Positions 39,701 to 41,527 of a stretch of 41,527 nt of DNA are shown piece after piece. Positions within the stretch are counted from its first letter, which is position 1, and each line of letters opens with the position of its first letter. A program made the translations under genes and the position numbers. Origin of the DNA: an uncultured Bacillota bacterium. GTDB taxonomy: Bacteria; Bacillota_I; Bacilli_A; RF39; UBA660. The notes below the pieces were generated by a model. The model worked only from the letters and a program-made list of their open reading frames with translations, ran no database searches and had not been told where the DNA came from. The DNA lies in NCBI GenBank assembly GCA_900313725.1, contig OMSK01000024.1, positions 1 through 41,527 of the forward strand, read 5' to 3'.

Positions 39701-41527
39701 ATGAATAGTTTTAAAAGTAATAAAAAGGGATTTACTCTAGTTGAGTTATTAGCAATTATAGTTATATTAGGAATTATTTCTTTAATAACAGTTCCGGTAG
39801 TAACTAGCATTTTAAAACAATCTAGAAAAAAAGCATTTCAAAATAGTGTAGAAATTGCTACAGATGTTTTAAGAGAGTATCTAAATGAAAATGATTATTC
39901 TAAATTTGAATTAAATGGTGTAAAAGTAACTGAACTTAAATCTTATTCAGCAAATAAATTTATAAATGGTAAATTTGTTGATAAGGATGGTGTTATTGAA
40001 GCTGCTTTTATTACTGATGGTGAATTCTGTGCCAAAGGGCCTATTAGGGAATTAAAGATTGGTAATGATTGCAAAAGCTTAGATGATACTGAAGCAGAAG
40101 TAGACAATACTAAATATGCAATTACATCAACTACAAAAAGTATAAAGGTAATATTAGGAGATGGATTTGCAATAGATGAAGAATCTGGTATAAAAAATTA
40201 TAAGGTTACAGTGGTTGGTGAAGGCTCAAAAACTTCAACAAAACCTGAAACATTTGATTTTACTGGATTAATACATGATCATGAATATACAGTAATAATT
40301 GAAATAACAAATGGTAATAATGTTGTTAAAACAATAGAAACAAAAGTAAGAACAAAAGCTATTGATGTACCTGAAATTGTTATTGCCAATGAAAATGAAT
40401 GGAAACAAAGTAAAATTGTAACGTTTAATGCAGAAGTTCCATCTGGAGCTGAAATGCAATATAGAATTGTAAATGGTACAGATGAAAAAGTTGGATGGAC
40501 TACAATATCAAATGGTGATACATATTTAATTGATTATACATCGAATGTAAGTACTCCAACATACATATATACAAGAATATCAGATGGAGTTAATACTGTA
40601 GATGCTATAACTAAAACACAAACAAAAGTAGATACTACAGCACCAACATGTGGAAGCTTTAGTGGTGGAAGTACAACATGGGCAACAAGCAGAAAAATTA
40701 GTGTAGCTTGTAATGAAGTATCAAATAGTGATAATAGTGGTTGTACAAAATCTTCATTTGATAAATCATATACAACTCAAACAACAACAGATACACCAAC
40801 AATAACAATAAAAGACGTAGCGGGAAATAGTGTAAATTGTAAAGCAACTAGTGCACAAAATATATATGTAGACAAAACAGCTCCTAATACAAATGTACCT
40901 TCAGCAGAGGCAACTACAAAATCAATTACAGTAACAATGAAACAAACAGATGCTCATGTTGGAACATTAGGAACAAAATATTATGCATTAAAAACAGGAA
41001 ATACGTGGGGTAGTTGGCAAACAAGTAATTCTAATACATATACATTTAATAATATTTCAAAAGGACAAACATATTATGTTAAAACTAAAGCATGTGATAG
41101 TTTGGGAAACTGCTCTGGTGAAACAGATGAAGTAAAAGTAGTAACTGAAACATTTACATATCCTGTAATAGCAATTTCAAATGAAAATGAATGGAAACAA
41201 AGTAAAACCGTTACAATTACAGGAACAACACCTACAGGAACAGAATTACAATATAGAATAAAAAATGGAAGTACTTGGAAAGTTGGAGGAGATTCAACTT
41301 GGGTTAAATATAATGGTGCATATACAATAAATTACACATCAAATGCAACAACTCCAACATATGTATATGCTAGAATATATGATGGAAATAGTAGTAATAC
41401 ATCAGAAGCTGCAACAAAAACACAAACAAAAGTAGATGTAACAGCACCATCATGTCCAACATCATATGGAGGAGCAAGTACAACATGGGCAACAAGTAGA
41501 AATATAACAGCAGCATGTAGTGAGGCA
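39701..41527 (+). CDS. giant modular prepilin-type (class III signal peptide) protein, 3' end beyond the window
   Basis: ATG 39701 follows an AGAGG SD. By my manual translation the frame stays open for 609 codons to the window edge. It is absent from the ORF track, presumably because it has no stop in the window. The N-terminus MNSFKSNKKG|FTLVELLAIIVILGIISLITVPVV is a canonical prepilin peptidase site (G-1, F+1, E+5). This is followed by a Cys-pair head and FN3/Ig-like modules. Confidence 0.85.
   Translation, partial: MNSFKSNKKGFTLVELLAIIVILGIISLITVPVVTSILKQSRKKAFQNSVEIATDVLREYLNENDYSKFELNGVKVTELKSYSANKFINGKFVDKDGVIEAAFITDGEFCAKGPIRELKIGNDCKSLDDTEAEVDNTKYAITSTTKSIKVILGDGFAIDEESGIKNYKVTVVGEGSKTSTKPETFDFTGLIHDHEYTVIIEITNGNNVVKTIETKVRTKAIDVPEIVIANENEWKQSKIVTFNAEVPSGAEMQYRIVNGTDEKVGWTTISNGDTYLIDYTSNVSTPTYIYTRISDGVNTVDAITKTQTKVDTTAPTCGSFSGGSTTWATSRKISVACNEVSNSDNSGCTKSSFDKSYTTQTTTDTPTITIKDVAGNSVNCKATSAQNIYVDKTAPNTNVPSAEATTKSITVTMKQTDAHVGTLGTKYYALKTGNTWGSWQTSNSNTYTFNNISKGQTYYVKTKACDSLGNCSGETDEVKVVTETFTYPVIAISNENEWKQSKTVTITGTTPTGTELQYRIKNGSTWKVGGDSTWVKYNGAYTINYTSNATTPTYVYARIYDGNSSNTSEAATKTQTKVDVTAPSCPTSYGGASTTWATSRNITAACSEA
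40388..41527 (+). repeat. intragenic super-repeat of about 792-804 nt (264-268 codons) within the prepilin gene
   Basis: An exact 28-nt match AATGAAAATGAATGGAAACAAAGTAAAA occurs at 40388 and 41180, and AAAACACAAACAAAAGTAGAT occurs at 40613 and 41417. At protein level both units share NENEWKQSK, QYRI.NG, YTSN..TPTY.Y.RI.DG, TKTQTKVD.TAP.C and TTWATSR.I..AC. Confidence 0.8.

Follow-up and report, generated by a model that had tools for sequence, protein, structure and literature searches.

The stretch of DNA analysed in this work (hereafter the window: 41,527 nucleotides of contig OMSK01000024.1) comes from an uncultured, spore-forming rumen bacterium of the class Bacilli with a very low GC content (24%), and its far end holds the beginning of a gene whose product starts as a type IV pilin and runs on into a long chain of immunoglobulin (Ig)-like domains. 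Within the window this gene is one stop-free frame of 609 codons on the forward strand, from an ATG at 39701 to the last base at 41527, where the contig ends; with GC at about 24%, such a length is not attributable to chance. A preliminary description of the locus had pointed out the uninterrupted frame and its absence from the list of open reading frames (ORFs), and was right on both counts, since a list of this kind omits frames that run off the end of their source. A ribosome-binding site (AAAGAGG, 39687 to 39693, forward strand) can be read from the sequence 7 nt before the ATG. Directly upstream, on the same strand, lies the gene of a lipoprotein of 140 amino acids (aa) with the lipobox LAVGC (39122 to 39544), ending in an intrinsic-terminator-like hairpin and T-run (39552 to 39575, forward strand; the stem-loop, at 39552 to 39568, has a 6-bp stem and a 5-nt loop). 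Two terminator-like sites were found near the start of the pilin gene, as against 0.1 expected in shuffled sequence. The hairpin is followed by a sigma-70-like promoter site, TTGATA-17-TAAAAT (39577 to 39605, forward strand; 10 of 12 matches), which is a weak indication only, the count of promoter-like hexamers in this AT-rich region being no higher than in shuffles. Given the terminator upstream and the promoter-like site after it, the pilin gene is probably a transcription unit of its own. An invertible promoter was looked for near the gene, and only AT-rich chance inverted repeats were found.

The full extent of the gene can be read from other contigs. The 140-aa lipoprotein occurs in identical form on many rumen and bovine metagenome contigs, six of which were fetched; since they match the last 12.4 kb of the window at 98.4-99.4% identity, they belong to the same species. 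The gene is intact on three of them, with lengths of 1,997 aa (L001), 1,999 aa (L003) and 2,990 aa (L002, which stands for nine similar places), i.e., uninterrupted frames of 5,994-8,973 nt in independent assemblies. These three have the same stop codon and the same downstream genes, and the 609 residues of the window are identical to theirs at 604-605 positions; strain differences in the gene are synonymous or non-synonymous at about 2:1. A stop or frameshift just past the window would have marked a pseudogene, and none is present in the three conspecific assemblies: the gene is intact and selectively constrained. The earlier expectation that the protein continues for at least 480 residues after its pilin head was correct as to the continuation, but an underestimate, as the complete protein has 1,997-2,990 aa.

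The difference between the alleles lies in two 1-kb direct repeats, 94% identical, at nt 1612-2632 and 4591-5587 of the gene. The alleles encoding 2.0 thousand residues equal the one encoding 3.0 thousand minus 2,979 nt lying between these two repeats. The window ends at nt 1827 of the gene, within the first of them, which accounts for the contig break at this place; three other contigs also break within the pilin gene. Tandem Repeats Finder returned nothing for the gene, the period of the repeat exceeding 500 nt.

The pilin module and the domains grafted onto it

The protein opens with the leader MNSFKSNKKG (39701 to 39730, forward strand), a basic class III prepilin signal ending in Gly-1 and followed by FTLVELL, with Phe at +1 and Glu at +5; it is supported by conservation in the family and by curated profiles (IPR012902), Pfam PF07963 N_methyl scoring 27.4 bits against a cut-off of 21.2 and TIGR02532 scoring 18.9 against 16.3. 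The class III signal named in the preliminary description is thus present, and the profile check on whether the N-terminus is an N_methyl domain came out in its favour. The alpha-1 helix of the mature pilin follows (aa 11-63; 39731 to 39889, forward strand), beginning with Phe+1 and Glu+5 and containing the hydrophobic alpha-1N, as indicated by profile, hydropathy and AlphaFold2 (AF2) modelling. In the model the helix occupies aa 13-63, that is 51 residues, with a predicted local distance difference test score (pLDDT) of 84-98, which is the N-terminal helix of about 50 residues, some 20 of them hydrophobic, that characterises pilins. A search with the single sequence matches solved pilins (geopilin at 1.2e-05, Streptococcus sanguinis PilE1 at 8.2e-05), and a profile of 56 family members matches the same two at 6.5e-16 and 7.3e-14, in addition to Pseudomonas aeruginosa PilA, Neisseria PilE, GspG and PpdD. 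Positions 7-62 of this profile align to alpha-1 of many solved pilins, and its match to Dichelobacter nodosus FimA extends over positions 7-125.

The helix leads into what AF2 predicts to be a small globular pilin head (aa 64-135; 39890 to 40105, forward strand) with a four-stranded beta-sheet (strands at aa 89-95, 98-105, 110-114 and 119-121; pLDDT 76-95) and the cysteines Cys110 and Cys124; a head-only model of 142 residues has a mean pLDDT of 86.8. Pilin heads have an antiparallel beta-sheet packed on alpha-1C and, in many cases, a disulfide loop at the C-terminal side. As for the head with a Cys pair proposed earlier, the two cysteines are there and four strands are predicted, whereas Foldseek gave no confirmation of the fold. 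By the evidence of its sequence the protein begins as a type IV pilin, and the predicted structure is consistent with this. The NCBIfam matches to GspG and to ComGC-GF cover mainly the N-terminal helix region, within aa 7-82. Identity as an equivalog of GspG, of ComGC/GD/GE/GF or of PpdD was considered and rejected, the NCBIfam scores being under the equivalog cut-offs.

From about aa 136 onwards the protein is built of a super-repeat of about 265 aa, made up of an FN3-like domain, an Ig-like domain and a Cys-rich beta-sandwich. FN3-like domain 1, which opens super-repeat 1 (aa 139-218; 40115 to 40354, forward strand), is modelled by AF2 as a 7-strand sandwich with pLDDT 95-97; its Pfam fn3 match is sub-threshold, and positions 135-222 of the family profile match FN3 domains of Dscam, titin and neogenin. 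Ig-like domain 1 (aa 222-308; 40364 to 40624, forward strand), with the motif NENEWKQSK...QYRI, is likewise a predicted beta-sandwich, and its sole Pfam match is a weak one to Big_6. Cys-rich beta-sandwich 1 (aa 309-395; 40625 to 40885, forward strand; 7 strands in the AF2 model, pLDDT 80-96) has no Pfam match reaching threshold. Its motif, VDxTAPxC...TTWATSR...DNSGC...D.AGN..C, recurs throughout the family consensus and suggests a HYR/Big_3-like sandwich. The rest of the window belongs to super-repeat 2 (aa 396-609; 40886 to 41527, forward strand), which self-alignment and phmmer resolve into FN3-like domain 2, Ig-like domain 2 and the start of Cys-rich sandwich 2. The internal alignment of aa ~142-350 with aa ~403-609 has a local BLOSUM62 score of 391 over about 205 columns, and phmmer seeded with one unit places unit 2 at aa 396-660 of the full-length proteins and counts 7.5 copies in the 2,990-aa form and 4.7 in the 2.0-kaa (thousand amino acids) forms. 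The super-repeat of about 265 aa in at least two copies, the FN3-like units TSTTKSIKV and ATTKSITV and the Cys-bracketed TKVD.TAP.C...TTWATSR blocks, all of them listed in the preliminary description, are borne out. Mean pLDDT over all 609 residues is 83, and the structures that Foldseek matches to this model are tandem FN3/Ig arrays (titin, contactin, fibronectin and the bacterial grappling-hook protein GhpA), with E 1e-12 to 1e-8.

The part beyond the window was analysed in the 2,990-aa form, where the series of super-repeats holds an unrelated insert of about 235 aa (aa 1153-1387) and gives way to a mostly unassigned distal part of about 590 aa. Within the latter, aa 2640-2890 are repetitive and may be beta-helix-like, judging by their sequence alone, and aa 2913-2981 form a GBS_Bsp-like domain (45-51 bits; Pfam cut-off 31.6), the one domain to pass its cut-off when single modules were run against Pfam at E up to 10, and all that Pfam recognises of the distal part. 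A sequence search of the PDB with the C-terminal 591 aa gave no match, and a homologue search with the C-terminal 596 aa gave 7, including one fragment of the same gene. GBS_Bsp-like domains are present in streptococcal autolysins and have been reported to bind a host protein (PMC9377611), with which, by analogy, a ligand-binding distal end would fit. The protein is composed of 18% Thr and 11% Ser and has 48 Cys. A hydropathy scan finds aa 8-40, the pilin helix, to be the sole hydrophobic segment of the 1,997-2,990-aa proteins; an LPXTG-like motif and a second hydrophobic segment were sought in them and neither was found, the C-terminus reading ...SFQDWTYKT. In this it differs from the sortase-anchored fibrillar adhesins (MSCRAMM or periscope proteins), which are defined by a C-terminal LPXTG with a hydrophobic segment and a basic tail after it. 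What the protein does have are the attributes of a modular pilin in the sense of Raynaud et al. (2021), its grafts being beta-sandwich modules by AF2 and Foldseek, FN3 domains by profile matches and the GBS_Bsp-like domain.

A family of large pilins and the systems it resembles

A word-indexed search returned 169 relatives, mostly of 700-1,050 aa, and among the 120 of them that were listed nearly all start with K/R-G before FTL(V/I)E. In family alignments of 56-59 homologues, whose identity to the window protein is 18-47%, Phe+1 and Glu+5 never vary, Gly-1, Thr+2, Leu+3 and Cys124 are conserved in at least 90%, and the consensus runs on through the FN3-like domain and repeated IDxTxPT...DxxSG...DxAGN sandwiches. 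An exhaustive search of 1.84 billion cluster representatives extended this to 7,647 proteins at E <= 1e-3, with 77 at E <= 1e-30. The class III motif is present in 121 of the 138 newly returned top representatives, and these best 138 have a median length of 887 aa and a maximum of 2,464, nine of them reaching at least 1,500 aa and two at least 2,000 aa. The giant pilin is the longest among the family members found, yet it is not alone, as there are hundreds of members with 500-2,500 aa. Those that are annotated bear no other name than 'prepilin-type N-terminal cleavage/methylation domain-containing protein' or 'type II secretion system protein'. One domain of the family also weakly matches the surface protein R28 (8cxj, E 4e-4).

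The genes of these large pilins, as seen at nine distinct family loci, are typically orphans amid housekeeping genes, and homologues elsewhere are flanked by genes as unrelated as pnp, aspS-prfA and smc. At locus L095, that of the family member P0070, two genes for large pilins of 615 and 742 aa are preceded, at a distance of about 9 kb and in the same orientation, by genes for a T2SSF platform protein and a Peptidase_A24. A search of loci L001-L089 for the T2SSE Walker A and Peptidase_A24 motifs had a Clostridium locus (L062) as its sole match. Extra pilin genes occur near family members at L007, L095 and L096. Small membrane-protein genes flank several members, and the only homologous pair among them are two 140-aa lipoproteins: that of the window, which has no Pfam match, aligns over its full length, at 38% identity (E 3e-26), with the product of a 140-aa gene directly upstream of the 997-aa pilin P0002 at L007, so that the lipoprotein gene is a conserved neighbour of the large pilin gene. 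This locus belongs to another organism, and its flanking genes differ from those of the window apart from the lipoprotein.

Modular pilins as such are already known; what is new is the scale, a super-repeat stalk with strain-variable copy number, a polarity opposite to that of sortase-anchored fibrillar adhesins and the size of a so far unstudied family in low-GC Bacilli of the gut and rumen. A survey has counted more than 1,200 such proteins, which fall into 264 architectures, with FN3 (IPR003961) among the commonest grafts and, as the 'most extreme case', an 860-aa pilin from Candidatus Falkowbacteria with 12 IPR013211 repeats (Raynaud et al. 2021, PMC8179133), so that the initial remark that known modular pilins carry a single module was too narrow. 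Like the N_methyl multi-domain pilins of that survey, all uncharacterised, the giant pilin joins several added domains, an FN3 graft among them, to an N-terminal IPR012902; unlike the 860-aa extreme, it is 2.3 to 3.5 times longer. The notion that a multi-repeat pilin of this length is unusual holds in this respect, but not in the sense of unique, considering its hundreds of relatives. Since the majority of its domains escape Pfam, most of the architecture would probably be missed by a domain-based survey.

Pili display modular pilins, which act in adhesion, and the bulky ones have been argued to sit at the tip, or in the shaft if their linker is flexible (Raynaud et al., PMC8179133). The minor pilins PilB (with a vWA module) and PilC (with a lectin module) of S. 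sanguinis, the major pilin of which is the PilE1 matched by the family profile, are similar to the giant pilin in coming from a monoderm member of the Bacillota, in their canonical class III signal with Gly-1, in their small pilin module, in their C-terminal grafts and in their predicted adhesive role. They carry one grafted module, have a few hundred residues and are encoded in the pil locus, and PilB has been shown to assemble into pili (PMC8179133; Shahin et al. 2023, PMC9934059); the giant pilin, by contrast, has about 20-30 domains, 2,000-3,000 aa and strain-variable repeats, and is encoded by an orphan gene. CofB of enterotoxigenic Escherichia coli (ETEC) and TcpB of Vibrio cholerae, which initiate filaments and are located at the tip, are the model for bulky pilins (PMC8179133, PMC10191384). 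In both, as here, a pilin module is followed by beta-repeat or beta-sandwich domains, but they belong to diderm T4b systems, have their genes in the pilus operon and form trimers. They are proteins of about 500 aa, and no sequence relationship to them was detected. Another likeness is to the Gram-positive 'periscope' adhesins (Rib/R28, SasG), which vary in repeat number and have a Sec signal and a C-terminal LPXTG sortase anchor. The giant pilin shares with them a long tandem Ig-like stalk, a distal binding region (a putative one in its case) and changes of length by recombination between near-identical repeats, although, being anchored by its N-terminal helix and having no LPXTG, it has the reverse polarity. 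Finally, the PilY1/PilC tip adhesins of diderm T4a systems are also modular adhesins of large size, whose place is thought to be the pilus tip and whose effector modules can be exchanged for one another (PMC8179133). PilY1, however, is not a pilin and docks onto minor pilins via a beta-propeller, and no IPR008707-type domain was detected in the giant pilin.

Some relatives are peculiar in their own right. Locus L096 has, at 2095-11126, a tandem of genes for large pilins of 892 and 1,906 aa, whose N-termini are nearly the same (MLKNKKGFTLIEILAAVTILGILTA...), with a 159-aa membrane-protein gene between them; from the sequence, this looks like a paralogous array of giant pilins. On a contig from the Hadza gut (L098, 10001-18769), the 2,360-aa member P0225 ends in a tail-fibre-like phage baseplate domain, Gp10_C, and is directly followed by two ORFs of 275-279 aa that also have Gp10_C. 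In the syntenic locus of P0128 (L097: aspS, pilin, a 136-aa gene, prfA), two Collar/Gp10_C ORFs lie upstream (2412-4129). By analogy with the PilV shufflon, of which they are reminiscent, these ORFs may be alternative distal tips or cassettes. P0129 (4,533 aa) and P0148 (2,541 aa) are very large relatives of the repeat region, with N-termini resembling degenerate class III signals that lack Glu+5 (MKKIF.YGKKNEKG followed by ITLTALVITVVVL); going by these N-termini, they may be Glu5-less, cap-type pilin-like proteins.

Proposed incorporation into a filament and the alternatives

That this protein is a pilus-presented or pilin-anchored adhesin is probable on its sequence and predicted structure, and the preliminary description, which had proposed a modular prepilin with FN3/Ig-like super-repeats displayed in either of these ways, finds support in the profiles, the AF2 topology and the intactness of the gene. 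Between the two, the balance of evidence tilts towards a 6.0-9.0 kb chromosomal gene for a giant modular type IV pilin that would be incorporated into a filament. From what is established of type IV pilus (T4P) biology (PMC8179133, PMC10191384), the protein would be inserted into the membrane with its N-terminus inside and the remainder outside, and cleaved after Gly10 by a prepilin peptidase of the PilD/ComC type encoded elsewhere in the genome, the same enzyme probably methylating the N-terminus of Phe11. The pilin module would then let the protein join a type IV filament as a minor subunit of low abundance, the tip or its vicinity being the most plausible place, and from there the chain of about 20-30 beta-sandwich domains would project the distal binding end over some 80-120 nm (an estimate that assumes about 4 nm per domain). 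If the protein is an adhesin, recombination between the repeats might tune its reach, as in periscope adhesins, and the 2.0- and 3.0-kaa alleles would differ in precisely this.

Incorporation is favoured by the conservation of Glu+5 and of the head across a very divergent family, the former arguing for filament assembly rather than mere anchoring, and by the one family member that is linked to PilC- and PilD-type genes. Several findings weigh on the other side. Pfam scans of all sizeable ORFs show no T2SSE, T2SSF, Peptidase_A24 or PilMNO gene in the 39.7 kb upstream, confirming the earlier statement that this stretch has no T4P machinery gene; about 10 kb downstream are equally devoid of a prepilin peptidase, an assembly ATPase or a platform gene; and only one of the nine distinct family loci has machinery within 10 kb. 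As regards the head, Foldseek gave no significant match for it in isolation, the best pilin having E 5.3, although a helix with a small sheet is a weak case for 3Di comparison, and the NCBIfam scores are all far below their cut-offs (GspG 29.3 against 88.85, ComGC 25.1 against 75, ComGE 23.9 against 49). The grafted module, at 1,860-2,850 residues, is far larger than any pilin shown to polymerise, and getting 2,000-2,850 extracellular residues across a Gram-positive wall as part of a filament that is still growing is a difficulty in itself. Moreover, the subunit that caps a tip usually has no Glu5 (PMC10191384), whereas the giant pilin has one.

Some of these findings lend weight to a fibril that is anchored by its pilin part and never polymerised, an explanation which we regard as a serious rival, though the less probable one. 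The class III signal would in that case serve just for processing by the peptidase and alpha-1N for holding the protein in the membrane, with the remainder forming a beta-sandwich stalk threaded through the wall as a fibrillar adhesin that stands free and varies in length, either as a sortase-independent counterpart of periscope adhesins or as an analogue of archaeal non-pilus class III proteins. An orphan gene amid housekeeping and sporulation genes with no machinery nearby, the eight of nine family loci that have none within 10 kb, a size far beyond any pilin known to be assembled (PMC8179133) and the pilin helix as sole hydrophobic anchor are all as this explanation would have them, and the variation in repeat number and the R28/Rib-type domain match are reminiscent of stalk adhesins. 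A plain membrane anchor, however, would not need an invariant Phe+1 and Glu+5 or a conserved head and Cys pair, one member lies 9 kb from PilC- and PilD-type genes, and a prepilin peptidase would still be required.

The two other explanations are much weaker. A fibre of sporulation or of the spore surface (a spore appendage or exosporium filament) might be thought of given the spoIIR, spoIID, M23 peptidase and CotZ-like genes upstream and the SpoIID, Peptidase_S11 and Gate (SpmA/B-like) genes directly downstream. We hold it to be very improbable, as co-orientation with sporulation genes says little when most genes of the 41-kb window are on the forward strand, the pilin gene has a terminator upstream and a sigma-70-like promoter site of its own, and homologues elsewhere sit between the unrelated pnp, aspS-prfA and smc; besides, we know of no spore appendage that uses a class III signal. 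A decaying pseudogene, or a chimera that assembly has built from repeats, would be in keeping with the contig breaks inside the gene in the window and three other contigs, and the 2.0- and 3.0-kaa forms could in principle reflect the collapse of repeats by short-read assemblers. Yet the long frames are uninterrupted in independent assemblies, the 2,990-aa form representing nine similar places; the first 609 residues are nearly the same in L001-L003, with mostly synonymous differences; hundreds of relatives are intact; and the two repeats, only 94% identical, are distinguishable in assembly. We therefore give this explanation the least credence of all.

To return to the filament-borne pilin, one may go further and see in it a distinct giant-adhesin strategy of wall-bearing gut Bacillota, in which a pilin would act as the 'plug' that places a tunable Ig-like chain of about 100 nm on the tip of a possibly retractable pilus, somewhat like a fishing line with interchangeable distal hooks (the GBS_Bsp-like domain here, the Gp10_C tail-fibre-like tip in P0225). 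In this extended form the proposal is doubtful, and we put it forward as speculation.

That simple type IV filaments have acquired new functions is at present put down to modular pilins, and those studied are only bimodular, with a few hundred residues. The present protein prompts one to ask what size of subunit a type IV machinery can cope with. If it is indeed a giant adhesin mounted at the tip, this machinery would be able to prime subunits of 2,000-3,000 residues and to push them through peptidoglycan, far beyond the sizes currently thought possible, and assembly into a filament, if shown, would surprise a pilus specialist. The family also suggests a sortase-independent route to fibrillar adhesins in Gram-positive bacteria, and marks out a large class of surface proteins of which domain databases pick up very little and which are regularly cut short in short-read assemblies. 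It may have a bearing on how rumen bacteria with reduced genomes attach to fibre, host cells or other cells.

Genomic surroundings and further observations

The remainder of the window carries metG, tatD, ksgA, tilS, ftsH, mscS, spoIIR, fba, murA, spoIID, an M23 peptidase gene and mreB, and further a CotZ-like and a patatin-like gene, ligA, pflBA, uppP and parA/parB, most of its genes being on the forward strand. The presence of parA/parB, together with a GC skew that is positive in most of the window, places it near the origin. Its early sporulation set (spoIIR, two spoIID-like genes, an M23 SpoIIQ-like gene and a CotZ-like gene) stands in a 24%-GC genome, the nearest database relatives of which are labelled 'Tenericutes', Mycoplasma or Bacilli incertae sedis. 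On the conspecific contigs the pilin gene is followed downstream by genes for SpoIID, a 238-aa lipoprotein, Peptidase_S11 and Gate (SpmA/B-like).

Representative genomes of GTDB were scanned with the 609-aa fragment and no relative was found, and the species appears to be absent from that set, or truncated there at the pilin locus. The nearest organisms by PflB, at no more than 77% identity, are uncultured Bacilli, 'Tenericutes' gut metagenome-assembled genomes (MAGs), Ca. Onthousia and Ca. Coprovivens (Bacilli incertae sedis). At none of the 80 loci of this PflB scan is pflBA followed by the gene of a giant pilin; a few encode small pilins sharing just alpha-1 with that of the window. One locus (L030, 19150-19944) of an uncultured Bacilli MAG (CAKOWQ010000003.1) encodes a 264-aa type IV pilin with a dockerin-like pair of Ca-binding loops, DVNGDGITDEKDV ... 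DANGDGELDTKD, in its head, an insert which the 193-aa counterpart at L035 (8884-9465), encoded in the same place upstream of AP_endonuc_2, does not have. From these loops, the L030 pilin may be a dockerin displayed on a pilus.

Three other genes of the same species deserve mention. About 6 kb past the stop of the pilin gene, on L090 (9658-13545), is the gene of a secreted, extremely Cys-rich protein of 1,295 aa with many CP.GY/C..G repeats, preceded by that of a 525-aa multi-pass membrane protein; there is no Pfam match on record for either. Between ligA and pflB of the window (30777-33116, forward strand) a protein of 779 aa is encoded that is very rich in Asp, Glu and Asn; its length is 767-778 aa in other strains, and a conspecific ortholog is likewise on record with no Pfam match. 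Lastly, a 218-aa ORF overlaps the end of pflA (36066-36722, forward strand). It is split on some conspecific contigs (into 48 + 133 aa at L002/L003 and 116 + 76 aa at L006) and intact elsewhere (203-205 aa), and may be decaying or phase-variable.

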